Shown here piece by piece: positions 1 through 63,137 of a stretch of 64,000 nucleotides of DNA. The stretch's first letter is position 1, and each line of letters opens with the position of its first letter. This DNA comes from Geosiphon pyriformis uo1. Its lineage: Eukaryota; Fungi; Glomeromycota. The stretch is taken from assembly GCA_016748015.1 (NCBI GenBank), contig JAAOMT010000571.1, forward strand, positions 685,095 through 749,094. The letters are read 5' to 3'. Under the pieces are notes generated by a model that worked only from the letters and a program-made list of their open reading frames with translations, was not told where the DNA came from and did no database searches. Both the position numbers and the translations under genes were made by a program.

Positions 1-2864
1 ATTATTTATACTGTTATTTAATAATTAGTTAATATATTATAATATTATTATTTTTGATTTTTGTTAATTTCTATTGAGTAATATTATTTTTTTCTTAAGA
101 TTAAGTTCCATTGAAATCAATATGCTTTTTTCTAATGTTAATATCTAACATAAAAGTTTGTATACTTGTTTAGACTATTTATTCTTACAAGTCCTAAAAT
201 TTGTTATTAATAAGCTTTCTAATTCTATTAAAAATAAGTATGTTTATTTTGTTTGTCAACAATACTTTTAAACAATATTAAAACAATATGTAAAGTTAGT
301 GTGTTGCTTTAAAACAGTGCTTAGAGTTGTTTTTTCTAGTTAATTTTTCAAACTTTTGGAGTTTTGTTTTGTTAATTTCTTTGCTATTTTTTCTAATATA
401 AATTGTTTAAAAATCTAATTGTGTAACTATTAAAAAGTGTGTATAATAAAAAGAAATAATTAAGTTCATTTCTTTTTTGGGTATTGTACTTCTTAAGAGC
501 TAGAATTTTTCCATAATTTTATTAATTAATATGTCAGTATTTTTTTGTTTTTTATGATAAAAATTAAAATATTTTGTGTTTAGGTTATTTTTTTGTGTGG
601 CTGAATTTTTTTTTATATGATATTTTAAAATTATTAAAAGTAATTTTTAATAAAAAATTATTTTTTTGTAGTAGTTAAAATAAAAGTTGAGAAGTATTTA
701 TAATATCTTTAGATATATTCATAATAAAAATAAATAATAAATAAATATTAAAATGAATTATTTTTATATATTAAAATTTTAAAGAAATTTTTTTAATAGT
801 TTAATGTTTCTGATTTTTCTAATTATTTTTGAGATTGTTTTAATTTTTTTTAAATATTAATAATAATAATCCAAATATAGTTGATTAATTAATTGTCTCT
901 TAAATAATGTTTAATGATTACTATTGGCTCCAAATCTTATGGAATTTGGTTAAAAGACACAATTAGTATATGTATTTTTAATTCAAATATTAATAGATCA
1001 AATAATTATTATTATTAATAGATTTTTAATTAGTTATTATGTGCAATTTTCTTTAAAATTTTATTGTTTAAACATAACTTATATGTTCTATTACCCAAGA
1101 CATTGTAGACATAAAAAGATCTGTTTCATTTGTTGTCAAATTTTCTGCTTTATTGTTTTTCTGTTTTTGTTTGACGTAATAAAACTTTGTCTCTTATTTT
1201 GTAGACAATAAGTTGTTCTGAAAGTTTGCTATTGTGTTAAATTTTTTGTTGTTTTTAAAAATACTTAATATTATTAATTGTATATTGGTAATTGCTTTTT
1301 AGTTTTTTTAGCAGTTTGTAAGTTCATCTTTTAATAATTTCTTATAAGTTGTTCTCATTTATTAGTTTTGTTAAATAAGTATTTATTATTAGTTCTATAA
1401 ATAATATAGCATTCTTTTACATGCTAATTTGAATAGTGTGAATTTTGTAGTGTTATGTTTTAGTATTTAATAAGCCAATAAAACTAAAGAGATAAATAAA
1501 TTTTATTTTTGTTACATTTTATTGCTTATTTTTGCCAGTGATTTACATAATGTTTTATTAAAATGTTTTATTAATTCATTTGTCTATAAATAGTAAAATA
1601 ACAAAAAAAATTGTTTTATCTTAAAATGTTGACTAATTTTAGCAAGCAAATTGTTTATAAAGTAAGTTTTTTAATTTAAGAATAGTTTTTTGAACAATCA
1701 TGTCTATAAATCAAATTTTCATATATAAAATTAGCAATTAATTTAGCATTTGTAATTTTAATGACTCTTGATTCTGGCTATTTTGTTAAATAATTCATAG
1801 TAATTACAATATATTGATTCTTTTTAATAGTAATAGTTAGTAGTTTTATTAAATTAATTTCTATTCTGTTAAATGGTTTTTTTATTTTAATAAATTATAA
1901 CAGTTCAGTTGTTTTTGATCTTTTTTTTTTTAATATATATTGTAATTATAAACATATTAAATAATATCAACATATATTTTTGGCCAATAGTATTAATTGG
2001 TTGTCCATTAAATTATGGCTTTTTTTGCAAAGTATTTTGTGTTTAAATCTAAGTACATGTTTTAAAGAATAATTTTTTTTTCAATTTTAGTAATTACTTA
2101 AAATAGATTATATTGATTGCATTGGTATAATATATTGTTTTTAACCAAATAATGTTTAGCTTATTTCTGAATTTTTGTTTGTTCTTTCAACAATAATTTT
2201 ATTAGATAATTAGAAAATTGTATAAGGTAATATATCAGATATTAGTGTGTTTTAGTGTTTATTTTAATTAAATAATAAGTGATTTTTGATGGTTATATAT
2301 GTTTTATTCGAAATAAACAGTCTGTATTTGTGTTTTTGGTTTTTTTTTATAAATAATATTATATATATAGGATTATAAGGTAGTAATTTATTTAACATAA
2401 TGTTTTTTTAATAAGTTTTTGTTTATTAACTAGATAAGTTCTTTGTGATTTGTAATAATATTAATTAAATTATATAACAAATATTGTTTAAAATATTTTA
2501 TGGCCTATACAATTACAAAGCATTTTATTTTATGAGTTGTGTAATTTTTTTTGGCTATGCTTAGATTTCTGTTAGCATATGTAACTACATATTTTTTTCT
2601 TTTTTTCTTTTGTTATAATAATATAACACATAGATCTGTTTTAAAGATATTAGTTGTAAGTACAAATTTTTTGGTAAAGTTAAAGTATACTAAGATAAAA
2701 GCTTCAGTAAGTCTTTGTTTTAAGTAATTGAATGCTCATTCTTGTTTTTTATTCTATTTTTATATTGTATTTTTAGCTAATAATTGATTTAATAATTGAG
2801 TCATTATTGAAAAGTTTTTGACAAATCTTTAATAATATAAAAAAGTCTTAAAAATCCTTGAAGT

Positions 2865-8882: not shown

Positions 8883-9572
8883 TGTTATGAGTTGAAGTAA
8901 CAAACTAATGAATAGCAAGGGAGAATAGAATTGTAGGGTAATAAAAGGAATCAAAGAGAATTCAACTTCAAAGAGCAAATTAAATGAATATAGATTCAAT
9001 GTGCAAGATCAGTCTCATAAAATATTTCAGTCACTATATTTTTCAAAAAATAACTGGGAAATCTGAAGGTAGAGAAATAGTTTGTACTGTTAACAAATAA
9101 TCACATACTGGTATAATTTTATGTCTTATGTTGGCACTCTTAGAATTCAATATCAGATATCAAATGTACTTTTTAGTTACATTTTATTCAATAATCTTTA
9201 AATGTTACAATTATACAAGTCAGAAAAAGGGTAGATAAATACCAACAAGTAATTTTTTATTCCAAGATATTCAAATACTTGAAAATAAGAAAAGGAAATT
9301 TAATGATAAAAGAAGGATTGAGATAAAGTTGTTATTTTATTTCTTTGATTTTTACATGCTTTTCTATAGCTAAGAGATTTATTGCTTATATAACTATCAA
9401 AAATAGTCAATGATCAGATTAATGACTAGATCAATGATCAGGTTAATAATCAGATTAATGGTTAGGTCATTGATCAGGTCAATAATTACTATCTAATAGA
9501 GTGGCTAATTATATGACATCAGTGGCTAATACATGTGATAATTAATAAGAAGTGTAGATTTCAACTGTAACA
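8883..9572 (-). repeat. 3' LTR of element B (690 bp)
   Basis: TG...CA ends. Colinear with 15887-16660 and with the reverse complement of 62449-63137. Confidence 0.9.
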
Positions 9573-12500
9573 TTATCCTCTTCAAAGAGATTAAGCTTCA
9601 GCAAAATCAAGTTATTCATGATGTAATTATTTGAAAAGTTTTATCTAACTCAAAGCTAACTAGTTTGTTGAAGTCTTTTGTGAATAGAATATATAATACT
9701 TAAAGTGAAATAAGTTTTGTATTCAAGAGACCAAATCTTTGTATTAGAGTTTTGGTTCTTCTAGCAATAATTAAAACTCTTGGAACATCTAACTATATAA
9801 TGTCCAAAATTTTTGCCTGTATTTTTGAAGTTGTTTTCTTTATGAGTTTTATATTTTCTATGATTTCTCCAAAGTGACCATAGAATTTTAATTGCTTTCC
9901 ATATGACAAATTTTTGTTTATGTGCAAGATTTCTTAGATTGTTTTTCCAATTGTGCTAGAAGATGAGAATATAACTGCTGTTATACTTTCTAACAGATAT
10001 TTATCCATTTTGCTATCAATTCTTTTTCTTCTGGTAATGGTTTTCTTTGGTCTAATAACAATATGTATTCTATTGTTATCTATTATAGTAGTTTGTTTTT
10101 TAATAGTTAAAGTAGCATTTGGATAGTTTTTAATCCAATACTCATGAAGAGTATAGAAGGCATTTTAAATGTTTTGATTCAGAAAATAATTGTTCATGTT
10201 AATTAAAGATATCTCTGTTTTAGAAATGGTGCATTTATTTATACTTGATTTTTGTTAATTATTTAGGTCAGTATTATCACAACAAACAACCAATTAAGTC
10301 GTTTATGATATTTCTTAAGTTGTGTACCATAAATAAAATGATCATTGAAAATTGTTCCAGATTAATTTTAAAGAATATAAAAATTATTGTTTAAAACTTT
10401 GTTGATTATAAAGAGTTCTTTCTATCAGCTAGAGAATTTATTACCATAGACATTGTTTTTGTCTGAATGGTATTCTAATATCAAGTCACCAACACTTAAA
10501 AAAAGTGTTTTATAGGTTTTTTTTTTAAGCTTTTCTTGAAACTGTTTTATTTTTTTAAAAGCAATTATTTGTGTTTCTATCAAAGAGTCAAGAATGATAC
10601 CAAGTCTTCTTTGCAAAATGTCTTTGTAATTTTCTATTGTGATTTCTTTAAAAGATATTGTCTCAATGTGAGTTTCTATTAGTAGTATTGTCATGTGTTC
10701 ATAAAACAAATAAAAAAGTTCATAATTTGTTATGTCATAATTTACAGTTTTATAAGCAAATAAGGCTGAAGGCAGTACTTTGTCCTATAAGTTTGTTTTT
10801 TTACTGGTTTTGGTTAGGGTTTTACATAGTGTTCTATTGAAACATTTCACTAGGCCATTTGTTTGAAGATGGTAAAAAGAAAAAAGTTTATGATGTATTT
10901 CTATTTTTCTACAAAGTTTTTTAATCAATATACTGAGAAAAGCTCTTTTTCTATTAAATAAAAATTCTTTGAAGCAGCCATGATGACAGATAATATTTTT
11001 ATAAATAAAATTGGCTATTAAGATTGCTGTTTTGTCTGAAGTGGTTCTTGCTTCTACCCACTTTGTAAGATAATTGGTAGCTGTGATAATGTATTTGTTG
11101 CCATTAGGAGTTATTGTTAAAAGTCTAACAACATCTATACTAATTCTGTCAAATAGTTGACCAACAGAGATTGGATAAATATCTTCTTTGCGATTGGATT
11201 TGTCTTTTCTTTGGTAAATGTTACAGGTTTTGATGTATTCAACAATGTTTTTTTTCAAAATAGACCAATAATAGTGAGCTAAAGTTTTCTGAATTGGTTT
11301 TGTTTTTCCAAAGTGTCCAGCTAATAGGTCAGTATGCATGTTGTATATTACAATTTCTTTTTCTTCAAATTTAATGACTCTCTGAGGGTGGTTAAAATTT
11401 TTTCTGTTTCTTTTATATAATTGGTTCTGACAGATTAAATAGAAATTTGATTGTTTGTGCAAATGTTCTCTTTGCTGTCAAGTATATTCTGATGGGTATT
11501 GTTCTTTATCCAAAAATTCTATTAAGGCAGAATAGTTGTCTAAGTCTATTATTGTGTTTGTCAAAAAAGGAGTTATTAATAATTAAGGTGAGTTGGTTTG
11601 AGAAGCTTGTACTATTATTGGATGGTAAGTCTAGAAAGAATGTCAGCATTTTGATGATTTGTTCCTTTGCAGTATTGAATATCATAGTTAAATTCATCCA
11701 AGTAGAGTATCCAGCAAGTTATTTGTTTGTGTTCCAGCTTCTTTTTATTGTGCAGCCAAACCAAGACTTAATAATCTGTTACTATTAAGAATTTCACATT
11801 AAAAAAATATTGATCCTAATAATTAGTAACCCAAATTACTGCTAAATATTCTTGTTCAGTTACTAAATAATTTTTTTCTGCTGGTGTAAGAGATCTATTA
11901 ACATATGCTATAGCATATTCCCTGTCATCTTCATTTTTTGTGAGAGGACAGTACCAAGTTTATAGCCAGATGTATCAATGTAGAAAATAAAAGGTTGGTC
12001 CAGATCAGGTTGCTTAAGAATTGGTTCAGTAACAAGTTTTTCTTTTAGAATTTCAAAAGCTTTTTGTTGATAAGTGCTTCAATAATAATTGACATTTTTT
12101 CTGAATAACTGATTGAGAAAAAAAACGATTTTAGAGAAATCTTTGATAAATTTGTGATAGTAAGAAGCCAAACCAAGGAAAAAGCATAGTTCAGGAACAT
12201 TTATTGGTTGTCTAATGTTTTGAACTTTTTCAACTTTAGCTGGGTCAGAAAAAATTCTATCTTTTATAATAAAATGACCAAAAAACTGAGTGAATTGGTG
12301 TTCAAAGAAAGATTTGATTGGGTTGATCTTAAGACAAACATTTCTGAACAGGTCAAAAACCTTCTGTAAATTTTCAAGATGTTTATCCCAGGTTTTTGAG
12401 TAAACCATTATGTTATCTAAGTAAACCAGAACAAAGTTTTCTTTTACTGATTCAAATACTTTGTCCATTAGGCATTAAAAGATGGGAAAAGCATTGGTAA

Positions 12501-15500: not shown

Positions 15501-15864
15501 GAATTTGGTAATTCAGATATTTGAAATTAAGGGGCTGTTGTTCAAAGGTTGTGAAATATAAAAGCTGATTAATGCTGTTGTTTTTTTCTTCAAAGTTGTC
15601 TTTAAGATAAACTTGATCAAAGTAGTAAATTGTATAGACTGTGTAGATTTTAGCTAAATGCTTGTTTAGAAACCAGTTCCAAAAATCTTGGAATTGTTTG
15701 CTGGATTGTTTTTTAATAGGGAAGCAAATCAAGCAGAAGAACAAAAAATTGAATTCAATAAAGTCTAGATCATTTTTGTTGTGTGCTTCAAAGTGTTTTT
15801 CTAATTGTTGTGGGAGATATAAATAATTATCCATACAATAGAAAACAAAGTAGATTTTAACAAT

Positions 15865-15880
15865 CTCACAGGGAGCACCA
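15865..15880 (-). promoter_or_regulatory. Primer binding site TGGTGCTCCCTGTGAG
   Basis: Starts with TGG (complement of tRNA CCA), 6 nt from the LTR end. Identical to the PBS of element C. Confidence 0.85.
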
Positions 15881-15886
15881 CTTTTA

Positions 15887-36885: not shown

Positions 36886-38189
36886 ATCAAAATGATTCAG
36901 TTCATTTGGCATAAATATTTTCCCTTCCCCATCCGTTTGTAAATTTCACTCGTACGTTCCCTTTTGTACATTCCAAAAAAAAACACCATTTTCAAATTAT
37001 TAGAAACTAAATTAGCCCACAAACGAAAATTTATATAAAATAGTTCATTCCCAATTTCGAAAGACCGAAATGTGAAATAAAATTCAAAACCTTATGAATT
37101 GTCGCGATTCCTAACTCTTGGTTTATCTATGAGTTTATTAATATTTCATTATCTCTATTAGGTTTTGGTGGATCTTCAAATCACCATGAAAAAAACAAAC
37201 ATCAGTTGTCTTTTTTACTTAATAACAGGATTTCCTGAAGATGATGAAAATGAAGTTCTGTAATTTTCTGGTAAAGTTAGAATTGCCTCGCAAAACAGTC
37301 AAAACATTTTATTTAGTATTGTTCTTTATGGTATTCTGTTTCTTGATTATAAAAGAGCGAATTATGATTTTTATCAAATCAATGGTTTAATACAATCCGG
37401 TTTTTTTAAATAAAAATAAATCACAAAAGCTTAATTTGGATGTTTTATATTTTATGAAAATTTAACAGGGAATTTTTTGTTATTATTTATTATAATTTTG
37501 AACAACATAATATTTATTATACATTTTTATGAAAAAATAACATTAAAAATAATTTAATTTTTAATATTAAAGTAAAATATTAACTAAATGATTTTTAAAT
37601 CAAATTATAATATAATTAGGGCTCCGAAAGAATCGAGTCAGCTCTCTTTGACTCGGTACTTGACTCGCCGAGTCTTATATATAAGTAGATCAAATCTCAA
37701 TTTAGCTCTTTTTAACTTGAAAAATGACAGATGATCAGAATAATATATTTGTTTTTGAAAATAATATGTTTTATAGTAATATTGAAGTAGATACTATAGT
37801 TATTATGACTAAAAAAAAGAAGTAAGCATGAATTTGGAATTTTTATGAGCAATTTAGCAATAAAAAAACTAAATATAGTTTTTACAAATAAATATTTTCA
37901 ATTATAAAAATATTTTTTTATTTATTATTTATTATTGTTTATTTGTTTAGTCTATTTATTAATAAGTTTTTAATAGTCAAGATACAAAACAGAATAGATC
38001 CAATACTTTTTATTAATAAAATATTTATAACAGAAACACTTTAATAAAATTAACAAAAAATCTATTAAATCAGAACTAATAAATAAATTTTTAAAATTAA
38101 AAATAAATATTTATAATTTTTTTAAATATTTTTTTTTAATTTATTTTTAAAAATATTTTTTATAATAATTAATTAGTAAAAATAAACTA

Positions 38190-44100: not shown

Positions 44101-44990
44101 CTTAATTTCCCCAAATTTAAATACTGTGGTAACAATCATATCTTTAGGTGTGTCTATGGGAATTTTTTTAATTGTCACAGCCCAATCTGACCTCATTTCT
44201 TGTCTTTTAAGATTGCTGTTTACATCGATCTCTTTTTCCCTGGCCAATGATATGGCCATTTCCATGCTTTTTTCTAAAGTAAATGTTGAATGGATAATTT
44301 CTTCAAATTTTGAAGGGATAGTGGCCCTCCCAAAACCATTGACTGTTGAAAAAATTTTCCTAATGAACTGAGTCTTTGCCATAGCAGATTTGCCCTCTAT
44401 TGCCAAAAAGTTGATGTCCAAAGCAAATGATTTTCTAATAGAAATTTTTACAGAAGTTTTCACAATTTTAGGATTTATTCATTTCCTTTCCAAAGATATA
44501 CTAAGGGGAGGTGAAAAGAGTTCCATCTTTTCTTCCATTTCATAATTGGGAGAGCCAAGAGGGGACCCAAAAATCATGCCGGAATTCACTCTATTTGCTT
44601 TAGGAGTAGTAGCTGCTAAGCCTAAAAGCAACCCACCATTAATCTTTTCTATGACTGTATTGTCTTCACCACAACTAGACTTACTATCCATGTTCAAGTA
44701 CATGCCATCAGAACCAAGTTTGACTAAAAAAATGTCCCTTTCATCACCTGAATGTTTAACATTACCAAAAACCACTTTTTTATTTTGGGAGAAAGAACCA
44801 CCAGCAGGACTGTGGATAGTACTCTTAGGTGCCTTTTTCTTAGACATATTACTATCAGAAGCAGCTTTTAAATCTATGATAAAGGGATTATTAGTTAAAG
44901 AAATGTTGATATAAACTTAACAAGAAAAATAAAAACTTCTTTTTCAGAAAATGCTCTCTTTAAGGATTATTTGAAGGTAAGAGAGAAAGA
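38190..44990 (-). mobile_element. Near full-length decayed non-LTR retrotransposon (LINE): ORF1 plus ORF2 APE-RT-RNase H
   Basis: ORF1 fragments 42988-44847 with a decayed CCHC (KCGKFGYSALEC). APE motifs ITETKL, GGDFNE, IDFIF, DTDH. RT QDMHKAYDSV, FVDN. RNase H IYTDG, YLDSQ, KVKGHSG. Short A-run plus (AAT)n 3' tail at ~38190-38214. The 5' end is approximate. Confidence 0.92.
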
Positions 44991-45329: not shown

Positions 45330-45835
45330 TTTTTCTCTCCTTTGTCCAAAAATTCCCAAAAAAGAGTCAATAAAGTTTTTTCTAAAAGAAGTTTTTTTAC
45401 AATTTAGTATGATAAATCCAAACCGTTTTTGCTTAATTACAAGGCCACTGTTGACTGTAGTATTGCTGTGATAAAGAAGTCTGTTAAAAGTTTTGGTCAT
45501 GTAAATAATAAGGAGGATGCTAAAGTAGATGTTGCTTCTAGGAAAAAAAGAAAAGATGGTGTTTTAAAGGATGGTACTGCTAGTGAACTGGTCCTGTTTG
45601 AAAAAGCTGTTAGTAGTTCTTTGGGGTCTGAAGCTGGTAATACAACTGGGTCTGATAATGTTGACATAAAAGAAGAGTGTTTGATAGAGAAAACCAGTGT
45701 AAATTATGGTGAGAGAAATTTGTTCATAAAAGGCAATTTTAATCAAACACTAAAAGATCCGAGATTGGTGACCAAAAAAGCTCTGAGTATGTCATTGAGA
45801 AAAATCAATTTTTTGAATAATGTTGATGATGATAA
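45330..45835 (+). mobile_element. 5' fragment (ORF1 start) of a probable second LINE family, cut by element D
   Basis: ORF 45429-45854 (SRKKRKDGVLKDG...EECLIEKTSVNYGE) has the basic/acidic character of a LINE ORF1 start and ends exactly at the LTR TGTTAC at 45836. Confidence 0.6.
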
Positions 45836-48800
45836 TGTTACTCATAAAATATAAGAAGTATATTAGCATATAAAGTAGCCAATCAGAAGTAATCATAGTA
45901 AATGTGAAATTCCAAAATTCCTCTCAAGAGGAATTGCAAGATTCCAGGAATTTCAAAATTCTTATATAAAGAATCACAGGATTCCAAAATTCCAGAATTT
46001 CTCTCAAGAGGAATTACAGAATTCTAGAAATTCCAGAATTCCTGATGTGAGGAATTAAGGAATCAAGGAATCTTAATTAGGTATATATAGCAGTAGTATT
46101 AAAAGGAAAAAAGGTAGAATCTTTTGGTTAGAGACTTCTCAGTTTAGATTTAATCTAAGCAACCTTTTACATCACAAATATCAATAAATAATTATTTCAC
46201 TATCTTAATCTACTTTCTACTATTAACACTTCATGTTAATATTAATTCATACTTAACCACACTGAAACAATAGCTCTTGATTACAACTATTGATGAAATA
46301 CTAACTTAAAAAATTGCTTTGGCTTATTTCTTTATTTTTTTTGTTTTCTTTTATTTTTTTATTTCTTTTTGTTTTGTTTACTAAATTGATTAAGGATTAA
46401 GTGCTGAATTATTGACATCAAGAATTGCCTAATAAAAGATCTTTGTGAGTGAGTAAAATACATACAAGAATTATGGATTACTTATCAGAGAATTGCTGGC
46501 CACTAAGCCAAGAAAAGAATTGACAGAATTGTGATTCTGAGAAACTACTAAAAACAACTATTAAATCTCTGTCTATTATATAAAGAACTCAGCCAAAACC
46601 TTCAGATACAAACCACCTTCAGTAATCAACATCATTATATCAATTGAGCATCAAGTTACAGGTTTGTTATTTGCTTTGAGACCCCAAATAATTACTTGTA
46701 ACATTTAATGCTTCCTGTAAGATATAATTTTACAGAGAACCAGCACCAACAATAATCATCTAAAAGTGGTAGAACTAGAAAACATAAAAGCAAACCATTT
46801 AGGATTCACCAAATTCTTGTTTCAACAGTACAGCCAACAATTAGGATTAAACAATAACCATTTCCCAGCAGAATCAGCCTTCAACTTTTATGTCAATGAC
46901 AAAATCACAGACTGCTTAGGAGGAACAGTTAACATTGAATCCACAAGAGAAAATTTCTATACAGAATTGTTCTAACATACCAGCTTACCAAAAAACTACA
47001 GTTTCACACCAATCATCAGGAAAATAAACCAAACTATTGAAAGATACACCCAACAACAATTCTCCATCATCTATGCAGACAAAGACAAAGGAAGATTGCA
47101 AACACCAGCAGTAACACCCAAAAAAATACAACCACCCACTTGAAAAAAAGCCAGAGTTGAATCACCAACCAATCCATCATATCATTATATGCCAGAAAGT
47201 GTTATTAATATCTCCTCAATAAATGTGTTCACATTAAATACAACATTAACCTTTGGATGATTCTCATTCCAAAGTAAACAAAGAAGAGCAAAATTGTTAG
47301 GACCATATGGCAAATATTTTGAAGGATTTAAATCGCGATTACCAATGCCATCAGAATATCAATTACTGCCATCTTAACCTAATTTCGGAATTTTTGATCT
47401 GTGAGAAGTAACAAAATCAAAAGAAGAAGAAGAGGATCAGAAATTTACTTACCAAAACCTGATCTCAGAAAACCTGGAAGTTGAAACCCCAAACATTCAA
47501 ACTTCACAAAATCCAAATTTAGAACATCTAAAAATCGGAACTCTGAATATTCAAACACCACCAAATCAGAACAATCGAAATCCCAATTTAATTAATTAAC
47601 AACATATACTTCCAGAAATCGTAATTAATCAACCAGTTAAACTAATTGGCCAGCCATTACAACAACCAGATTAGCAAATCCAACTGCTGCCAGTATTACT
47701 TCAACAACCTTAACAGCTACTTCAACAGCCACAACAATCTCAACCACAACCATAACAACTATTAAACTTGAATTTAATGGCCTATGCTTCAATTGCCAAA
47801 CTCAAAAAATTCACCAGCAAAGAGGATGATGCCCAAGCATAGATTAATAATGTCACAAAAGCCATTACTGCTAATAATTGAGACAATGCCAGAGTACTTC
47901 AAGTAATTCTATACTTCTTACAAGATACTGCCAATTCCTGGTATCAAAGCTTAATCAACAAACCAGTCACTTTTGATGTGTTTAAACAAAGTTTTTGAGA
48001 TATTTTAACAACAATAATAGTATCAATTACCTGGCCAACACTTTTACCACTATAAAACAAGGGAAGACTAAAGCAGTTACTACATACTTAGGATGCTTCC
48101 ATAAAAACCTGCACCAAATTCAGACAATCCAAGCTGACTATTTTACAGTGCCACAAATTTTAAATCAATTTATTAAAGGTTTGTGCAGTAGCATTCTCCA
48201 ATACATATGTCTATTACACCCAGCAGACCTTCAAGCTGCAGTTATCAACACCAGAGATTTTGAAGCAGCAGAATTAGAAGCCAATCATGCCCAAGCCGTT
48301 AATCTAGTAATGAATGGATCATCTGAATTGAATTCCAAATTGAAACAATTTAGTGATTCAATTAATTAGGAGTTAAAGGGATACTTAGTTGACAATCGTG
48401 CAATTTATTAGCCACCACAATGATGCAATAATATAGAAAACACAAATTGTTTCCAAAATCAGTCACATCTACTATCATCATCAAGTTAGCTATGGCAGTC
48501 TAAAATGCATATTTGTTACAACTGTGGTAAACAAGACCATATCTGAGTTAACTGCCATTCTTATAGTAATTCATAATTGGAAAATCAATACAAAAATTCC
48601 AATTGCAGATTTCAGATCCGAATTATCACCCAAATCAAGATCAATATTAATTCATTTATCTGTCAATGACACAACAGCTGATTTATCAACCACTAGTATA
48701 TGCACCTCCAATCTATTAACCATAAACACTGACAATTTATCAACCACAGTCCCAAGCAATCTATCAACCACAGTCACTAGTAATTTATCAACTTTAACCA

Positions 48801-50640
48801 ATTCAAACACCAGCTTAAATGACACCAAACAACCCAAGATCTAGAATCACTCAAAACTGGAGATCAGTGATGGTTGTTTACCAACTGATTCTCAGCTCCT
48901 CACAACATCCAACAGGATTATAGTTGCAGAATTTGGGAGCTGGGCCCACCCAAAATCTGAATTTCCAACAGTATTTAAGTCTTCTGATTACTTCAGAAGA
49001 CACTCAATCACACAACCCAGAATTCAATCAACAATCCATACTTACCAACAACATCCCATCAGCAACCATTATGGAAGACAAATTACTTACTGCAATATTT
49101 CTTTTTAAAATTGACAAATCTTCAGAAGTCCTGTTGTTTAATGGAGCTGCCTTTAAAGAGAAACCCATAACTGTAATGTATACTAATACCAAAGTTAATA
49201 GTCAGTCCATCAAACTAATCCTAGATAATGGATCAATTGACAACATCATTACCAAGCAACTTATGAATCAATTAGGTTGCCAAGTTGACTGCACTGCCAG
49301 CACCAAAATCATTACAGCTGATAGAATAACAAAAACTTCTATTGGTAAAATAGACAACTTCCCTATTGAAGTCAACAACATCACAGTACCAATCAAAGTT
49401 CTGGTTATAGAAGCTACTTAGTACTAAGCTTTTGTTAGTAATGACTGGCTGTCCAAAACAAATGCAATGCTTGACTGGACAACACAAGAGTTGCAAATCA
49501 GTCAAAACGACCAACACATGCAAGTACCAGTGACATGTGGTTATTTCAGACCCAGCACTATAACACGACCACTCATTGACTTCAAGAAAAAGAAAAAAAA
49601 CCTACTTGGGAAGCCTATCAAGTATTGTGCACTGATGAAAACCACAATGAACTACTGCCAATACTCTCCTGGGATGACAACAGAAAAAAAAAACAAAAGG
49701 AAAAACTTACTTGAAATGCAGACCAAATTTGAGAAACTAACAATAACTCAGACAAACTGCCAACCTGAAAATGGGAAGAAACCAACAAAAAGAAAGGAAA
49801 AAAAAAAGAAGAAAACCTATCCAAAAGAACCACCACCACAGAAATAACTAGTGGCTGGGAAAGAGAGTACTTATAAAAACCAATAAAGAAACCACCATAC
49901 ATACCTCTCAAATGCAAAGACTGTGAAAAGAAACTTTCTTCCATGAGAGCTTGGATGGCACCAGATAAAGACTACTGAACATGCACACATTATTACTGTA
50001 AGTCATGTTATAGAGAACAATATGAGTATCCAAAACATTAAGAAAAGTGGGACAATGAGCCATGTTTTGCTTGCGGTAAACAATTACTTGATGAAAAAAT
50101 GTGGAACAACATCTCTGGTTAAAGGGGAACATGTGATGCTTCATGCCAGTATACAATTTTCATCAGTGACTGGGTAAGTTGTAGAACATCTGTTACTGCC
50201 ACTTGGCACCAAGCAATCTTTCACTTGGATGGTTACCCACACAATGAAAACAAGATCTGGTGAATAGCCAATGCCAAAATAAAAAGTGCTTTACCCAGCA
50301 AAATTCTGGAGATAAAAAACAATCCTTCAGAACCAGTTGACATAGTTTTTATCCCCAATTCAGACATCTTTTTGAATATTAAGACAGGCCCAGAGAAATT
50401 TCATGAGCATTATCAAAACTTGGCACCAACAAAAAAAGAACAAGAACAACATTTGGAAGAAATAAACATGAGACTATGTAAATACTGTTTGATCCCATGT
50501 GACTTTCAATATTATAATAAGTGTAATCTCATTTACAATTCACCAACATGCATGATCTATACAATTCCAGAAGAGGAAGAACCAATTAATAGCTACACAT
50601 TGGAATTGAAATTAGATTTTGATCCCAATTCAAACTCCGA
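45836..50640 (+). mobile_element. 5' half of Gypsy element D (same family as element C)
   Basis: LTR 45836-46703 (TG...CA), decayed PBS TAATGCTTCCTGTAAG, gag 46766-48560 with CYNCGKQDH knuckle, protease LILDNGS, Cys-rich insert. Truncated at the LTR of element C. Confidence 0.9.
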
Positions 50641-51488
50641 TGTTACAGGTAATTATTTCTGCTGTTAAATTAAATAACAAATCTGTAACTTGGTGTTCAA
50701 AAGCTACTTTCATGGATGAGGTTCTGCAAGTGTTGTATCTGAAGGTTTTGATGAAGTTCTTTGTATAATAGACAGAGATTCAATAAGGTCGATAATAGAT
50801 GTATCTTTCCAAAAGTTTTCCTAATTTCTTTCTCAGCGTGGTGGTCGGATTTAGTCTAGCAGTCATGCCCTTCTGGTAAGCTATCTGATAATATATAAAA
50901 TCCTACTCTTATTTCTGGGTCTTTTACCAAGCTATCCTTGATGTCAATAACTCAGCGCTTAATCTTTTTAATCAATTAGTATACAACAACAAAATCAAAG
51001 AAAGAAAGAAAATAAAATAAAGAAAATAAAAATAAAGAAAATAGAGAAAATAAGCCAAGACAATTTGGTACATTAGTATCTCGTCAATAGCCATAATCAA
51101 GAGCTATTGTTCTAGTGTGATTAAGTATCAATTACTATTAACATGAAGTGTTGATAGTAGAGAGTGGGTTGAGATATGGAATAATTATTTATTTGATGAT
51201 TGGGAACTGGAATGTTGCTTAGATTAAATCTAAACTGAGAGGTCTGTCTTTTCAGCTTCTAATCCTACTGCTATATATACATAATTGAGATTCTTCAATT
51301 CCTCAATTCTTTACAACAGGAATCCTGCAATTTCTTGTCAGGGAATCCTAAAATTTCTGGAATCCTGCAATTCCTCTGAGAGGAATTCTGGAATTCCATA
51401 TTTACTACATCTACTTCTAATTGGCTAATATCTACTGACTAATAATACTATATTTCCTATATTCTATGAGTAACATTATCCCTTCCTT

Positions 51489-52148
51489 TTAATATTGAGC
51501 TCTGTCGAAATCTAATTCTTTTAATTCCTCTTCTTGAATTATTTCTTGAACTTTTTTTTCAAGTATTAATTGTGTTATTTTATTTTGTAGTTCTTCAAAT
51601 TGGGCATTGGTCATTTTTCCCAATTGATTACTTGTAACTGTATCCATTGCTGTATTGAGTAAGATTTCTGGTTAGTCTTGAAATCCCATATATAGCTGGT
51701 AAATGGCTCAAGCTTGTGTGGTTAGATTGTTCTTTTCCACAAATTGTTCTAGTTGTCCCAGTATTGTGGTGTCAAATAACTGTTTTGTTTTGTTGGTGTA
51801 CAAGTTCTGGATATTTACATGTTGTCCCAAGTAAAAATAACAATAGTTTTTTGGAAATTGTTATATCCACCAAGTCCAAGTTTCTCTGGTAAGTTCTTGG
51901 CATAATCCGACTATTTGTTGTTTTTTCAAGGCCAATTTTATCTTGGTTATGATCTTGTTGACCACATTTTCAAGTCTTTTCTGTGCTTTGTTTTGTAATA
52001 TCTTTGCTGTATTTTTGTAACGAATGGTTTGTTGATTGATGGTAATTTCTATCTCCTGGTGTTGGATTAATTGAAAAATTTGTTGGGCTAGTGAATGGGT
52101 ATTGTCCATAATCTCCATTTTTCTGATCTTTTTTGTCGCGTCGACCAT
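51489..52148 (-). pseudogene. ORF3 of element C (220 codons, unknown function)
   Basis: Single frame from ATG 52148 to TAA 51489 with only point-mutation stops. Ends immediately before the PPT. Confidence 0.7.
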
Positions 52149-52171
52149 GTTTTTATATATTCTTTTGTTGA

Positions 52172-53552
52172 TCAATTGGATGTGTTGTTGTCAATGATAA
52201 TAATTGGTTCCAGATTTCGTGGAATCTTATCTGGTTGGACTAGTATTCTCTGTACTCCTAATTATGGAATATTACTGGTAGATGATGATGCTATATGGTG
52301 GTATAGTTTTAGTCGATCTTCATATGCTGCTTTGGTCAAGATTTTGTCGTTCAATCTTAATTTGTAAGCTCCATTTCCTAGAATTTTTTCTATGTGAAAT
52401 AGTCTGTCCCATTTGGGATCAAATTTTCCACTTCATTGTTTTTTTGCTTTGGTATGATGTAGTAGTACTTTGTCTCCAATTTTGAATTCAACTGGTTTAT
52501 CTGGTAGTTGGTTATCATGTCTTTTTTTTTGTTTCTCTTGTGACTTTTGTATGTTATCAGCTGCTTTTTATCATTTGTTTTCTAATGTTTCTATTAAGTC
52601 ATATGTTCTTCTCAACAATGTATTTTTGAAATTCTTTTCTGTTATTGGTTTGGTTGGGTATGTGCTGACTTCTATTTCCACTGGTAGTGTTGCTGTTCTA
52701 CCATATACTAATTCAAATGGTGTTGCTTGTATAGTATCTTGCTTCATTGTCCGATAAGCAAATAGTACTGATGGTATCAACAAATCCCAATCGTTCTGGT
52801 TTTTTTGGCTGAGTTTAGCTATTGCTTCACACAATGTTCTGTTGAATCTTTTGACTAATCCATTAGTTTGTGGATGGTATGGTGATAATAGTGGTCTCTT
52901 AATTCTGAATCTTTGGCTCAATTCTGTTAATGTTTTGTTCACAAAATGAGTTCTTTGGTCTAATAATAATTCTTTTGGACATCCATGTCAACAGATTAAA
53001 TCCTGATGAACAAATTTGGCAATGAATTCTGCATCCGCTCTTTGAATTGCTTTTGCCTCTGGTCATTTAGTGAGATAGTCCATGGCTATTGCTATGTATC
53101 TGTTTTCTCCGCTGGTGATTGTTAATGGTCCAATTAGATCAATTCCAACATGGTCGAATGGTTGTCCTACTTTGATTGGCCTTAATGGTTTACTGGATTT
53201 CATATCTTCTCTTTACTGACAAGCATCACAATTTTGAACATATTGGATGATGTCTGGATATATTGATGACCAATAGTATTTTTTTCTGGTTCTTTCCATG
53301 GTTGCTTCTTTGTGAAAATGTCCTGCTGTTGGATTTGAGTGCATGTTGAATAATATTGTCTCTTTCTGGTTCTGTAACTACTCTGGTTGATTAATCTGGA
53401 TCTTTTCTATTTTTCCGATAAAGTATATTTTGGTGAGTGATAAAATATTTTGATTGTTGTTTGATACTCTTTTGTTCCATTTGAGATAAATTCTCTTTGA
53501 ACTGTTGAGTGTTTATATAATGTTGAAGTTGTTGATATTTTTGTATGTTCAT
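52172..53552 (-). pseudogene. Integrase of element C, in its own ORF
   Basis: ATG at 53552, HHCC zinc motif, GIDLIGPL, SPYHPQTNGLVKRFN, GPY/F-like region. No chromodomain seen. Confidence 0.88.
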
Positions 53553-55449
53553 CTTTTGTTATATTTTTCGTTGGTATTGTTCTGGTTTTGTTATATTTTT
53601 GTGTTAAAATGTTCTTAGATTTGTCTCATTTGTAACAAACTGTCAGCATTTCTGTTGTCTTTTCCTTTTTTGTAATGTATAGTATAATTGTATGGTGTGA
53701 ATGCCATTTTTCATCTTGACTGTCTTTCATCTCCAAATTCTTGTTTTTGGAGTGATGTTAATCCCTTGTAATCTGTGTATACTTCAAACTTCTGGCTCAA
53801 GTATTTTTTCCATTTTATGACTGACCAGTATATTGCTAAGTGTTTTTGTTCTGGTGTTCTATAGTTCTTCTTGGCTGGTGTTAAATCTCTGCTGGCTTAT
53901 GCTACTAGATGTTCTCTGCTGTCTGGTTCTCTCTGAGATAATACTGCTCCCAATGCTTGGCTGGATGCATTGGTAGTAATGACAAATGGTTTGCTGTAAT
54001 CTAGATAGATCAGTACTAGAGCTTGAATGAGCTTTCTTTTCAGAATATCAAAAGCTTTTTGTTGACTTTCTGTTCATTTATATTTTGTATTTTTGGTTTG
54101 CAGTTGGTTAAGTTGCTGCACTATCTTGGAAAAGTTCTTAATAAAACATTGATAGTAGCTGGCAAATTCCAAGAATGATTTCAGTTCTGTCATATTGGTC
54201 AGCACTGGAAAGTTCTTTACTATCTCTATTTTCTCTGGATCTGTTTTGATGCTGTCTTTGCTGACTATGTGTTCCAAGAATTTTAGTTCTGTCTTGCCAA
54301 AAAAGCACTTTGTTGCATTTAACTTTAGTCCTGCTCTTCTTAGTCTTTTGAACACTTGTTGAAGATGATAAAAATGATTATCAAATGTTTTTGAGAATAT
54401 GTTGGTGTTGTCCAAGTATACAACTACGAATTTCCACAATAAGCCAGTATAGACAATTTTTATTAGCTGTTGGAAAGTGACTGGTGCGTTGGTTAAACCA
54501 AATGGCATTACTTTAAATTCAAAATTCCCTTCTCTTGTGGTAAATGCCATCTTCTCTTTGTCAGCTGGATCCATGACTACTTGCCAGTAACTACTGTTCA
54601 AGTCTAATGTTGAGAACCATTTGTTCCTACCAAAAGCATCAAATAATTCCTGTATTCATGGAGTTGGATAGCTGTCTCCATGAGTTACACCATTGAGTTT
54701 CCTGTAGTCTACACAAAATTAGATCTTTCCATTTTTCTTATGGACAAGTACCACTGGTGATGACCATGGACTCATTGATGGCTGAATTAGCCCATTGTCA
54801 AGCATTCAGTTTATCTCTTGACAAATAATTTTGTGGCTGGCTGGTGGCACTCTGTATGCTCTTTGTTTAATTGGCATTGCATTTCCAGTCTTAATCTGAT
54901 GCTGAATGATGTCAGTTTGGCCAAACTCATTTTCACTGGCAAAGATGTCTTTGAAATTGTTGAGCAACATCTTGAGCTACATATATTAAAGTGGATCTAA
55001 GTTTCTCATGTTTATTTGTTCCAATTGTTCTGGTTGGAGTAAATAATATTTGTCTTGTCCATAGATTGTTTGTAATGTGATGTTGACATATCCACAAAGT
55101 TGTGGAAAGTCTGAAATGGGGTTTGGTGGTTGGTCTTCTATTTCTGTGGTTAAATATCCAATGGTGGTTCCTTCTGGTATGTTAATAACATTGCCAGTGT
55201 TGTTGTAGATGGGAATTTTTATGCAATTATAATCTTTGGCTGGTATGTGGAGATTAATGAGTCCAACTTCTTCTGATTCACAAAAACTGGCTTCTGCTTC
55301 AAAAATTTGTGCTTGGTCTTTTTCTTTCCTTTCTATTGCTAGCATGTACTGGTTATATGATGAAATAGAAATAGCTTGACTGGTTGAGATAATTTCTCCT
55401 TGGCCAACAATTTCTTCCTCTACCATATTAACTGGTATATCTATTCTAC

Positions 55450-55840
55450 CCATTGATCCAAATTCCTGTATTCCTCTCACTATTATTCCTAATTTCTCCC
55501 TTTTTCCCACTGATACTAACTGAGTTATTCTAACCAGAGGCAGGAATATTGCCTGTGCTATCTTTTTGTTGGGCTCTATTATATAGGTCTTTTCTGAGTT
55601 ATTTTGTAACATAGCGATAATATTTCCTACATATCCCATGTTAATTATTCCTCCTCTTATATTAATCTCTCTTTTTGCTAGACTACTCCTAGATGCTAAT
55701 TGAACCATTGTTGTTGCTGGAATTTCCAGTGCTATTTTCAAATCGATGCAGGTGTGCATATGTGGTTCTAATTTGATGGCTTCTGTTCCTGGATATCTTA
55801 GATCAAATTCTGCATCAGTATCATACATGCGTTCTGGCAT
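55450..55840 (-). pseudogene. Trimeric dUTPase domain within pol of element C
   Basis: Decayed motifs 1-5 in order: DAEFDL, ASRSSLA, GGIINMGYVG, KKIAQAIF, RGIQEFGSMG. Confidence 0.93.
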
Positions 55841-58800
55841 AATACTTTTCCCATTGTTACTATATCATTTCAACTCTTGTTTCTTGGAGAGATCTGGTAT
55901 TGCAATGTATTGTTCATAGTTTAAATCGGAGTTTGAATCTGAGTTTGAATTGTCTTTGTTGTCATTGCCATTTTGAACGGAACTGGAACCAGTGTTTTTG
56001 TTATTGTCATCGGAGTCTGGATCACGATTGATCAGCGATTCTGATTCCGATGCACAGCTGCTAATTGGTTTTTCTTCTTCAGGGATCGTGTAGATTATGC
56101 ATGGTGGTGGATTGTAAATAAGGTCACAATCGTCACAATATTCAAAGTCACTGGGAATTAAACAATGGTAACACAGTCTTGTATTTAACTATGCTAGTTA
56201 TTGTTCTTGCTCTTCTCTAGTGGATGCCAAGTTTTGGTAGTGTTCATGGAACTCTTCTGGTTCCAGAAAATTTATGACTGGCTCTGTGTCCCAGTCAAGC
56301 TTAATGGGTTTTGGTGGGTTGTTTTTAATTGTCCTGATTTTTTCTGGTAACACGCCTTCAATTTTGGCAATTGCCATTTGCTATAATTCATCATTGTCAT
56401 GTGGACAACTGTCCAATTGCTGTACAGCTCTTCTCTAAGCGGCTTTTATGAATGTTCTTTTCTCAACCCAATTGCTGATAAAGATTGTGTATTGGCAGAA
56501 CACGTCACACATTTCTCCTCTTCCCGGAATGTCATTCCACATTCCTTCATTGAGGAGAGTTTCTCCACAGACTATACATGGTATATTATCCCATTTTCCC
56601 ACTTGTTTTGGTCTTCCAAAACATTCGACATGGCATGCATGGCAATAGAACTTGGTTGCCATCTAATATTCTTCATTATCGCCACAGCATGCGCCCATTG
56701 ATGACAATTTCTTGCCACAATCAATGCATATCAGTTTGGGTTGGCGATAGGTCAATAATTGTTGTTAACTGTAGGTGTATGGGATATAAGTGTTGTTGAC
56801 TTAAGTGTTTTCTTCCTTCCTCTCTTTCCCTTTTCCCTTTTCTTCTTTTTACTCCCAACTCAATGGTTCTTCCTGTTCATTGTCAGTCCAGATCAAATCA
56901 TCTGTTTCCCAGGTCAGTTCCTCTTTTTGCTTTCCCTTAGGGTTGTCGTTCCATGAGAGTATTGGTGGTAGTTCGTTGTGGTCAGCATTGGCCCAGAAAA
57001 CTTGATAAGCTTCCCAGATAGGTTTCTTTTTCTCCTCTTCCAGTTCGATCAATAGTTTTTCTCTTGGAGGAGTCTTGAAATGGCCACACGTGGCCAGTAC
57101 ACGTATGTGTCAGCCCTGATATGTTAGCTGAAATTCCTGGGTGTTCCAGTCTAACGTCACATTGACTTTGAATAGCCAGTCATTACCAATGAGAGCTTGG
57201 TATTGAGTGGCTTCCATTACTAGAACTTTAATAGAAGTATGCCATTGACTTTGAAAGGGAAGTCGTCAATTTCGCCGATTGGAGTTTTGGTCGCTCCATT
57301 GGCTGTGATAATTCTGGTGCTGGCAGCTCAATCAACTTGGTGACCTAATTGATCCATGAGTTGTCGTGTGATGATGCTGCCTGCTGAACCACTGTCAAGA
57401 ATCAATTTGAGGAATTGTCTCTCAACTTTGGTGTCAGTGTATATCATGGTGATTGGTTTGGCTTCAAGAGTGGCTTCACTAAATAATGACATTGCAGTTG
57501 TTTCCTCAAATTTGAATGGGAATATAACAGCCAAAGACTTGTCTTTGGTGATGGTAGCAAGTGGGATATTACTAATGAGTGGTTGTTTTTGGGCAAATAC
57601 TAGGTTATTGATTGGGACATCTTCTGGGGTAACCAGAAAACTTAAATAATTCTGAGAATTCGGGTACTGGGGTTGACTGGCACCCAAATTTCTCTGGCAT
57701 AATCCAGATAATTGCTGTAAAGAACTGGGAATTGGTTGATAGACTACTATTGCCGATCTCCAGCTCTGTTGAATCATTCTTGGTCTTTGGGTTCTATTGG
57801 GTGGTAAGCTTTGGAGTGGTGTTTGAATTTGTTGAGGTTAATAGATTATTTGTGGCTGTGGTTGTTGATAAATTACTTGTGGCTGCAGTTGATAGATTGG
57901 AGCTTGATACACCAGAGATTGATAGACTGATAACTGTATCACTAGTAGGTAAGCAGGTTGGTTTTAATTTGGGTATTGATTCAGAGTTTGGAACCAGTGA
58001 TTGGGGTTTCGATATTGGTTTCCCAATTATTGGTTATTTAAACACTGGTAACAGTCAATTTGGATATGTCCTTGTTTACCACAATAGTGGCAGATACACA
58101 TTTCCTGTTGCCATTGTTGATTGGTTAATGAAGATAAATGTGGCTGATTTTGGGCATGATTAAAGTTTTCTTGATTATTGTGTTATTGTGGAGGCTGATA
58201 AATGGTGTGATTGTCAGCTAAGTATCCTTCCAATCTCTTATTAATTGATTTACTGAACTTCTCTAATTTGGAATCCAATTCAGATAATTCGTTCATTACT
58301 AGATTAACAGCTTGGACGTGGTTAGCCTCTGACTCAGCAGATTCAAAATCTCTGGCATATGTGACTGCGTCTTGAAGGGTGCCTGGATGCAATGGACGTA
58401 CATGTTGCAAGATGCTGCTGCACAGGCCATGGATAAACTGGTTGAGTATCTGTGGGGCTGTGAAATAGTTGGCATTAATTGTTTGAATTTGGCACAGATT
58501 TTGATGGAAGCATCCCAGGTAAGTGGTAACTGCTTCAGTTTCTCCTTGTTTCATGGTGGTGAATGTATTGACTAGGCAATTGATGCTGTTATTGTTGCTG
58601 AAATATCTTAGGAATTCTGCTTTGAAGACATTGAAATCTTGTGGTTTATTAACCAAGCTCTAATATCATGAATTGGCAGTATTCTTGAGAAAGTAGGGAA
58701 TGGCTTGCATTGCTTAGGCGTCATTCCATCCATTGGTTGTAATGGCCTTTTCTACATTATTCAGCCATACTTGAGCATCATCCTTTTTGCCAGTAAAATT

Positions 58801-60743
58801 GTCAAGTTTTGCAATTGGTGCATAGGCCATTGGATCTAAGTTAGGTGGTTGTGGTGGCTGTTGAAACAGTTGTTGTTGTACTAGTTGTTGGGGTGGTAGT
58901 TGAAGTGGCTGTCATATAGGTTTGACTATAAGATTAATTGGCGGTTGATTGATGACAATTACCGGAGGTAAGTTTTGCTGATTAATTAATTTGGGGTTTG
59001 GATTGTTCTATCTTTGATGATTCGGAGTTTCGATTTCCAAATTTTTTAGATTTAGATTTTGTTGAGTTTGAAAATTTGGGGTTTCAACTTCTGGGTTTTC
59101 AGTGATCAGGTGCTGGTAAGTGAATTCTTAATCCTCTGATTCTTCTTCTTCTTTTTCTGATTCTGCTGCTTCCCATAGATCAGAGATTCCAAAATCTGGT
59201 GGAGGCAGTAGTAATCGAAGTCCTGATGGGATTGATGATTATGAATTAAATCCCTCAAAGTATTTGCCGTATGGTCCTAATAATTTTGTTTTCCTTTGTC
59301 TACTTTAGAATGGGAATCGTCCAAATGCTGATGTTGCAGTTAATGGGAATGTGTCTGCTGATGATATGTTGATGGCGCTTCCAGATATATAGTGATAGGA
59401 TGGGTTGCTTGGGGATTCAATTCTGTTTTTCTTCCAAGTAGGTGGCTGTATTTTTCTGGATGTTACTGCTGGTGTTTGTAGTTTTCCCTTGCCTTTACTA
59501 GCATATGTAATTAGATATCTTTGTTGAGTGTGGTGTTCAATTTCTTTGTTAATCTTAGTAATAATAGATGTGAAATTATGATTTGTTGATAGATTGGTGT
59601 TTTGAATTAACTCCTTATAGAAAGTTTTTCTTGCTGATTTAGTATTCACTGGTGTTCCTAATAAAAAGGAAATCTTTTCATTGACGTAGAAATTGAAGGC
59701 TGATTTGGCAGATATATGATTGTGGTTTAATCCCAAGTATTGACAATAGTGTTGAAATAAGGATTTTGCGAATCCTAAATAGTTTGCTCCTATATTTTCT
59801 GATTCTGCCACTTTTGGTTTGGTGTTGTCGGTGCTAGTTCTCTGTAGAATTATACCTCACAGGGAGCACCAAATGTTACAGGTGATTATTTCTGCTGTTG
59901 AATTAAATAACAAACCCATAACTTGGTGCTCAAAAGCTACTTCCATGGATAAGATTCTGCAAGTGTTGTATCTGAAGATTTTGATGGAGTTCTTTATATA
60001 ATGAACAAAGATTCAATAGGGTCGATAGTAGATGTATCTTTCCAAAAGTTTTCCCAATTTCTTTTTCAGTGTGGTGGCCAGATTTAGTCTGACAGTCGTG
60101 CTCTTCTGGTAAGCTATCCAATAATATATAAAATCCTATCTTTATTTTTGGGTCTTTTACCAGGCTATTCTTGACGTTAATAACACAGTGCTTAATCTTT
60201 TTAATCAATTAGTATACAACAACAAAATCAAAGAAAGAAAGAAAATAAAATAAAGAAAATAAAAATAAAGAAAATAGAAAAAATAAGCCAAGACAATTTG
60301 TTAGTATCTTATTAATAGCCGTGATCAAGAGCTATTGTTCCAGCATGGTTAAGTATCAATTACTATTAACATAAAGCGTTGATAGTAGAGAGTGGGTTGA
60401 GATATAAAATAATTATTTATTTGATGATTGGGAACTAGAATGTTGCTTAGATTAAATTTAAACTAAGAGATCTGTCTTTTCAGCTTCTAATCCTACTGCT
60501 ATATATACATAATTGAGATTCCTCAATTCCTCAATTCTTTGTGACAGGAATCCTGCAATTCCTGATGAAAGAAATCCTGGAATTCTGCAATTCTGCAATT
60601 CCTCACTGGGGAATTCTGAAATTTCTGGAATCCTGCAATTCCTCTAAGAGGAATTCTGGAATTCCACATTTACTATGTCTACCTCTAATTGGCTAATATT
60701 TACTGACTAATAATACTATATTTCCTATATTCTATGAGTAACA

Positions 60744-63137
60744 TCACTATTATTGGCCTACCTTGAGAAAAGACATTGCTGAATACATTAAAACTTGTGA
60801 TATCTGCCAAAGAAAAGGCAAATCCAATTGCAAAGAAGATATCCATCCAATCTCTGTTGGTCAATCATTTGACAAAATTGGGATGTTGTTGGACCTTTAA
60901 CAATCATTCCTGATGGCAACAAATATATTATCACAGCTACCAACTATTTTACAAAGTGGGTAGAAGCAAGAGCCACCTCAGACTAAACAGCAGTCTCAAT
61001 AGCCAATTTCATTTATAAAGATATCATTTGCCATTATGACTGCCCCAAAGAACTTTTATCTAATAGAGGAAGAGCTTTTCTCAATACACTGGTTGAAGAA
61101 CTTTGTAAAAAAATGGGAATATGTCATAAACTTTTCTCTTCTTATTACCCCCAAACAAATGGCCTAGTGAAACATTTCAATAGAACATTATGTGAAACCC
61201 TAGCCAAAACCAGTAAAGAAACAAACTTATGGGACAAAGTACTGTTTTCAGCTTTGTTTGCTTATAGAACTGTGAATCATGACATAACAAGTTATGAACC
61301 TTTTTATTTGCTCTATGAATGCATAACAATACTACCAATAGAAACTAACATTGAAACAATACTCTTTAAAGAGATCACAATAGGAAATTATAAAGACATT
61401 TTGCAAAGAAGACTTGGTACTATTCTTGACTCCTTGGTAAAAGCACAAATAATTGCTTTTAAAAAGATAAAACAGTTTCAAAAAAAGCTTAAGAAAAAAA
61501 AAACCTATAAAACACTTTCTTTAAGTGTTGGTGACTTGGTACTAGAATATCATTCTAACAGAAACAATGTTTATGGTAATAAATTTTCTAGCTGGTGGAA
61601 AGGACCCTTTATAGTCAACAAAGTCTTAAACAATGGTTCTTATATTCTTCAAGATCAATTTAGAACAATCTTCAATGATCGTCCTGTTCATGATATATGA
61701 CTTAAGAAATATCATAAACAACTTGATTGGCTGCCTGTTGTGATAATACCAACTCAATTGATCAATAAAAATCAAGTATAAATAAATGTACTATTCCCAA
61801 AACAGAGATATCTTCAATCAACATGAACAATTATTTTCTGGATCAAAACATTCAAAACGCTTTCTATACTCTCCATAAGAATTAGATCAAAAACTATCCA
61901 AATGCTACTTTGACCATCAGAAAACAAACAACCATAACTGATAACAGTGGAACATATACTGTTATTAGACCAAAGAAAACTACTACCAAAAGAGAAAGAA
62001 TTGGTAGCAAAATGGATAAATATCTGTTGGAAAGTATAACAGCAGCTATACTTCCACCTTTCAACACAATTGGAAAAACACTTTAAGAAATCTTACTCAT
62101 AGACAAAAACTTGTCATATGGAAGGCAATTAAAACTCTATGGTCACCTTGGTAAAATTATAGAGAATATGAAACTCATGAAGAAAACAACTTCAGAGATA
62201 CAGGCAGAAATTTTGGGCATTATATAGTTAGATGTCCAAAGAGTTTTAACTATTGCTAAAAGAGCCAAAACTCTAATATAAAGATTTAGTCTCTTGGATA
62301 CAAAACTCATTTCACCTCAAGTGTTATATACCTTATCCACAAAAGACTTCAACAAACTAGTTAGCTTTGAGTTAGATAAAACCCTTCCAATAGATTACAC
62401 CATAAATAGCTTGATTTTGCTGGAGCTCAATCTCTTTGGAGAGGATGATGTTATAGTTGAAACTTATACTTCTTATTAAAAATTACATGTATTAGCCACT
62501 GATGTCACATAAATTAGCCACTCTATTTTTAGTAAGTAATCATTGATCTGATCAATGACCTAACCATTAACCTAATCATTAACTTAGTCATTGATCTGAT
62601 CATTGACCACTTTTAACAGTTATATAAGTGATGAATCTCTTAGCTATAGAAAAGCATATAAGAATAAAAAAAATAAAGAAATAAAATAACAACTTCATCT
62701 CAATACTTCTTTTATCACTAATTTCTCTTTTTCTACCTTCAAGTATCTGAACATCTTAAAGATAAAAAACTACTTGTTGGCATTTACTTATTCTTTTCCT
62801 GAAACATGTAATTGTAACATTTAAAGATTATTAAATAAAACGTGACTGAAGAGCACATCTGATACTTGATATTAAATTCTAAGAGTGCTGACGTAAAGCA
62901 TAGAATTATACCAAGTGTAATTATTTGTTGACAGTACAGACTATTCTTTTACCTTCAGATTCCCCAGTTATCTTTGAAAAGTATAGTAACTGAGATATTT
63001 TATGAGACTGATCTCACACATTGAATCCATACTTATTTAATTTGCTCTTTGAAGTTGAATTCCCTTTGATTTCTTTTATCACTCTACAATCTTGTTCTTT
63101 TTTGCTATCTGTTAGCTTGTTACTCCAATCTGTAACA
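60744..63137 (+). mobile_element. 3' part of a family-B Gypsy element (B'): integrase, ORF3, PPT and 3' LTR
   Basis: Colinear with the reverse complement of 8883-11278. Integrase ORF 61113-61700, PPT GGAGAGGATGA 62438-62448, LTR 62449-63137. Confidence 0.92.
61823..62479 (+). pseudogene. ORF3 of family B (219 codons, unknown function), running through the PPT into the LTR
   Basis: Single frame MNNYFLDQNIQNAF...ETYTSY with four stops explainable as TGG>TAG, CAA>TAA and CAG>TAG. Homologous copy at ~9542-10197 (-). Confidence 0.7.

Follow-up and report, generated by a model that had tools for sequence, protein, structure and literature searches.

A third gene between integrase and polypurine tract in Ty3/Gypsy retrotransposons of Geosiphon pyriformis, possibly encoding a soluble regulator

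Retroviruses carry their envelope gene (env) between integrase and polypurine tract (PPT). In long terminal repeat (LTR) retrotransposons, additional open reading frames (ORFs) that run in the sense direction and lie between pol and the 3' LTR (aORF-3S) are a known class according to the available text of PMC7264820; that of PMC2864245 records a dUTPase and an 'add. ORF' in fungal Gypsy elements, and that of PMC3248453 mentions no such third gene. Extra ORFs after pol are known, and of those characterised so far almost all encode membrane proteins or are unexplained. Here we describe a gene of this kind, ORF3, from a 64,000-nt stretch of the genome of the fungus Geosiphon pyriformis (the window), where it is found in element C, a Ty3/Gypsy retrotransposon, and in elements A, B1 and B2. 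Our literature searches found no description of the ORF3 protein.

Element C is a Ty3/Gypsy element with a dUTPase; LTRs, primer binding site (PBS), PPT, gag and the order protease, reverse transcriptase (RT), RNase H and integrase are all present. Read on the minus strand, it consists of 5' LTR, PBS, gag, protease, dUTPase, RT, RNase H, integrase, ORF3, PPT and 3' LTR (Table 1). The ORF3 frame contains three internal stops, at codons 96, 147 and 159, and the remaining two frames of that strand contain 16 and 6. Translation likely starts at Met11 (position 52118); the equivalent methionine is the start in 42 of 104 relatives and also in distant ones, and 28 of the 104 begin ten residues earlier. 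At the sites of the in-frame TAA, TAG and TGA codons, relatives encode Q, R, K or W, a pattern compatible with C>T/G>A decay, and 77 of the 85 substitutions between B1 and B2 are transitions. An earlier note on this DNA had listed the C, B1 and B2 frames with their motifs and stops, all of which are present, the unstated strand of C and B2 being minus; its statement that only C>T/G>A stops break the frames is compatible with C and B1 and fails for B2, which carries a 1-bp deletion as well.

The C protein has 104 relatives among 328 candidates, all of them hypothetical proteins of G. pyriformis. For the B protein there are 129 among 404 candidates, and the best 120 of these 129 are again all hypothetical proteins of this fungus; 20 of the 120 listed are exactly 218 amino acids long, 65 share the same start, and many other B matches are gene models containing what look like false introns. 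In the annotation of this genome, upwards of 200 'hypothetical proteins' (104 plus 120 listed matches) are pieces of a transposon gene. A mixed-profile search of 1.84 billion representatives gave 107 matches, 77 of them new; ten of the new ones were looked up, and seven proved to be further G. pyriformis subfamilies and three ENA/JGI proteins. One additional B-like protein came from a separate search.

Homologues at 24–37% identity, some of them intact, are present in metagenomes, and at 26–33% identity there are complete, uninterrupted ORFs whose starts match. Among the at least 592 pattern matches listed by a metagenome scan, two loci (L001 and L002) were confirmed. The L001 homologue is an intact ORF of 230 amino acids that follows RT, RNase H and integrase of a related metagenomic Gypsy element, the same position as in C. 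The L002 homologue is preceded by an integrase tail and, in the interval between the two, by an extra open frame of 137 codons (L002:398–811) that has no Pfam match. Integrase is 56% identical between L001 and C and 35–40% between C and B, whereas ORF3 identity is approximately 27% between C and L001 and barely detectable between C and B; this fits inheritance of ORF3 together with pol, with ORF3 changing faster.

A sense ORF between pol and 3' LTR is thus found in C, B1, B2, L001 and, as a remnant, in A; within the window all four elements that retain a 3' end have it, and each family has more than 100 protein relatives. When the window was cut into 642 six-frame pieces, the C-only profile matched the remnant in A, already suspected in the earlier note, with an E value of 1.1e-8, in a region where the DNA of A and C no longer aligns. 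ORF3 is a real accessory gene family without a prior name, and the antiquity that had been proposed for it is borne out within each clade by the intact homologues. It should be noted that dN/dS, previously suggested as a check, is 0.41 for two copies (190 gap-free codons), which is below the mean of a transition-aware null (0.58, range 0.34–0.93) and not significant, since 9.6% of 500 permutations are as low. Copies that decay once they are inserted should give just such an outcome, which is uninformative on gene status.

Common ancestry of B- and C-type ORF3 is plausible, and we consider it fairly probable. The two agree in position and length and in the order of their predicted helices, and they share a TATA-like box, placed 41–46 nt upstream, as well as a motif ahead of the PPT. 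The C-terminal pattern that had been seen in both is there, but the similarity is not significant by BLASTP (E 1.8) or by HHalign profile–profile comparison (E 0.24, 0.22, 0.41 and 0.17). One of 15 B–C cross pairs is significant; within the window the B profile matches neither C nor A, and the C profile does not match B. The non-significant profile–profile tests would suit two unrelated genes captured independently at one position, as would the finding that among the 77 new matches no database protein is strong with both single-family profiles, with one exception (151.7/23.7 bits), probably the product of a gene-model fusion. We regard separate capture as rather unlikely; it concerns origin and fits any function.

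We analysed 13 ORF3 proteins. None has a hydrophobic segment of the transmembrane or signal type by Kyte-Doolittle analysis (no dedicated predictor was run): the 19-residue mean reaches at most 1.37, where the usual transmembrane threshold is 1.6, and the N-terminal 10-residue mean at most 1.27. No protein has more than three cysteines. The view that ORF3 does not look like env is thereby upheld. The predicted layout comprises an N-terminal helix with a beta-hairpin, a basic linker and a helical core at residues ∼ 90–185; for most full-length members an acidic tail is predicted as well. The linker carries a net charge of +4 to +7 per 20 residues and is a possible nuclear-localisation or DNA-backbone patch; the tail carries −2 to −7 in 11 of the 13 proteins, the two exceptions being gene models without a normal end. 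The core is weakly predicted to resemble the ParB/KorB/SopB/DUF1016_N DNA-binding domain. Nucleic-acid binding, one of the functions the earlier note had offered, is thus faintly indicated by matches, in fold and in profile, to helix-turn-helix (HTH) domains of the ParB type; ORF3 scores under the Pfam family cut-offs for HTH_ParB, DUF1016_N and DUF3102 and has no significant family match in Pfam, NCBIfam or PHROG.

TATA-like boxes precede ORF3 in C and B1 (Table 1), and in B2 one lies at 10243 with the spacing of B1; the box of C is a putative internal promoter of ORF3. At the other end of the gene, C ORF3 stops just ahead of the PPT, whereas B ORF3 reads through the PPT into the LTR. Here the families, whose DNA does not otherwise align, have a pre-PPT motif in common, defined by a pattern that was picked after the sequences had been seen. 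Since its reading frame differs among families, the motif is probably a cis element. No unusual RNA structure was found in this region in any of four cases (z −0.65 to +0.86).

Each of the four elements concerned has a stop after RNase H (C, 53617–53552; B2, ∼ 11620; A, ∼ 2300; L001:772–801), and in C and L001 a new ATG opens integrase. Judged from these signals, this lineage may express integrase as an ORF of its own, an unusual arrangement for Ty3/Gypsy. No chromodomain match at E 0.01 was obtained for the integrase tails of C, B1 and L001, the first two of which come from decayed copies, and SH3_Tf2-1 is found in those of C and L001.

Because the predicted protein has no membrane anchor and a weakly predicted DNA-binding core, ORF3 likely regulates its own element rather than making it infectious. 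Our preferred reading, which we put forward tentatively and at somewhat less than even chances, is that of a soluble self-regulator, made from its own short mRNA, that binds element DNA. Beyond the anatomy we infer the following steps, taking B and C as diverged members of one family. The internal TATA box would give rise to a short subgenomic mRNA and hence to the soluble protein, which the basic linker would carry into the nucleus. There the target of the helical core would be a site within the element, either in the LTR or at the pre-PPT motif, and the acidic tail would contact the transcription machinery. Related copies would be switched on (transactivation) or shielded from methylation-linked silencing. 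If ORF3 is conserved, soluble and DNA-binding, it would be a retrovirus-like regulatory gene for fungal Gypsy elements. LTR sequences constitute 41.2% of the G. pyriformis genome according to the available text of PMC11952901, and regulation by ORF3 would, if true, be a testable reason for this share despite heavy C>T decay.

A more specific proposal, which we rate as doubtful, is that a bacterial or phage HTH gene of the ParB/DUF1016_N type was captured in the env slot of Glomeromycotina-type Gypsy elements, acquired its own promoter and became a sequence-specific LTR regulator or anti-silencing factor. If so, ORF3 would be the retrotransposon counterpart of VANC; it would have helped LTR elements to occupy 41% of the Geosiphon genome, and the lineage would be one in which integrase, too, is expressed from its own ORF. 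We consider it unlikely that ORF3 is an accessory factor that binds RNA, comparable to Rev or the CERV protein of Cer1 (PMC10309623, available text), and exports, dimerises or packages genomic RNA, perhaps via the pre-PPT motif. Such a role would explain the basic linker, the missing membrane anchor and a motif kept as nucleic acid across frames, and CERV is a precedent, but the motif shows no unusual RNA structure and the weak fold signal is that of duplex-DNA binders.

Somewhat less probable again is an integration-targeting or chromatin tether that substitutes in trans for the chromovirus chromodomain. A DNA-binding fold would suit a tether, the three integrase tails give no chromodomain match, and the seemingly separate integrase ORF suggests modular expression; however, many Gypsy elements lack chromodomain and ORF3 alike. 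We consider it very improbable that ORF3 is an env-like fusogen, or a coat or nucleocapsid gene taken from an RNA virus. Apart from the env position, this idea draws on Closter_coat as the second Atlas feature match for P0300 (0.93) and on a trichovirus coat at BFVD rank 31 (E 1.1). The Atlas match has 156 features (guide 170) and a recognition of 2186 (guide 2300), both below guide, the trichovirus row has TM 0.21 and a root mean square deviation of 17.9, and the hydropathy and cysteine counts of all 13 proteins largely refute env. Finally, an accidental frame in A-rich non-coding retrotransposon DNA, for which the scarcity of stops in purine-rich strands and the non-significant dN/dS might speak, is refuted by conservation between families, namely protein similarity of A and C that outlasts DNA alignability and intact ORFs with matching starts, and deserves next to no credence.

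The window contains a few host genes, with decayed retroelements nested around them. Its first 18,000 nt (1–18000) have a GC content of 17–31%, as compared with 29–41% elsewhere, and elements A and B2 in this part are strongly decayed by C>T/G>A changes, among them some that made stops at CpA-type sites; this is methylation-driven mutation or mutation like repeat-induced point mutation. Element A is related to C, with 61% DNA identity over the end of integrase, and is heavily decayed. It has apparent insertions at ∼ 2950–3650, within RT, and at 725–801, in the interval from integrase to the ORF3 remnant; the second of these resembles 38074–38149. Element C (50641–60743) is flanked by D (45835–50640) and a B fragment (60744–63137) with no matching target duplication and may therefore be a recombinant of two insertions via their LTRs. 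C and B2 have the same PBS (∼ 59855–59873 and ∼ 15865–15883) although their integrases are 35–40% identical, and a decayed form of it occurs in D (∼ 46705–46725). Between protease and dUTPase, the pol of C contains a cysteine-rich stretch (∼ 56500–56130, minus strand) with several CxxC motifs, a possible zinc-binding insert. A LINE-like element (LINE, long interspersed nuclear element) with endonuclease and RT matches lies at 39519–44916 on the minus strand.

Table 1. Positions of ORF3, its signals and its host elements (window numbering, except for L001)
Feature	Position	Strand	Remarks
C ORF3	51489..52148	-	decayed third gene between integrase and PPT; 219 codons + stop
C TATA-like box	52152..52159	-	upstream of Met11 by 41 nt and of Met1 by 11 nt; sequence match
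C pre-PPT motif	51494..51509	-	contains GAGCTCAAT; just upstream of PPT
C polypurine tract	51476..51490	-	sequence
C 3' LTR	50641..51475	-	TG...CA
C 5' LTR	59874..60743	-	87% identical to C 3' LTR; followed by PBS common with B2
C integrase	52268..53552	-	core and SH3_Tf2-1-like tail; ATG comes after post-RNase H stop
C dUTPase domain	55493..55846	-	between protease and RT; Pfam dUTPase E 9e-19
B1 ORF3	61823..62479	+	218 codons, 4 internal stops; last 10 codons within 3' LTR
B1 TATA-like box	61777..61784	+	46 nt upstream of B1 ORF3 ATG
B1 pre-PPT motif	62416..62431	+	shared pattern
B1 3' LTR	62449-63137	+	B1 is a 3' fragment
B2 ORF3	9541..10197	-	4 internal stops and 1-bp deletion near codon 190
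B2 pre-PPT motif	9590-9605	-	shared pattern
B2 full element	8883-16660	-	4-bp target site duplication ATAA
A ORF3 remnant (C clade)	128..445	-	3' end of element A; C-family profile
L001 pre-PPT motif	~3085-3100		shared pattern
D	45835-50640		truncated relative, 69% identical; adjoins C

Taking the sources as far as their available text goes, ORF3 resembles the aORF-3S of PMC7264820 in position, in sense orientation and apparently in retention across many copies. Those described there are env-like ORFs of plants and insects, some with transmembrane domains, whereas ORF3 is fungal, has no such domain and has no significant family match. PosPlaTy3-5, like C, has a dUTPase between protease and RT, and the elements of PMC2864245 also have an extra ORF, of unknown function; they were surveyed as chromoviruses, in contrast to the ORF3 elements with no chromodomain match, and their extra ORFs are set beside ORF3 by description only.

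What is new here is a possible, weakly indicated ParB-type fold, which is testable. The predicted core is weakly similar to ParB-type HTH proteins (SopB, KorB, VirB, Spo0J and Noc; DUF1016_N and DUF3102) and to the Mu transposase I-beta domain, and the likeness would consist of a Y..[IL]G helix, followed by a pair of helices with a turn and then by short helices. In function, and not in sequence, ORF3 can be likened to accessory proteins that act on the element encoding them: VANC, the anti-silencing protein of plant VANDAL transposons (PMC5735166), and CERV, which is made from a spliced mRNA (PMC10309623). The sORF2 of the MDG1 group (10.1101/2025.03.14.642691) is likewise an element-encoded accessory protein, but it is transmembrane, unlike ORF3.
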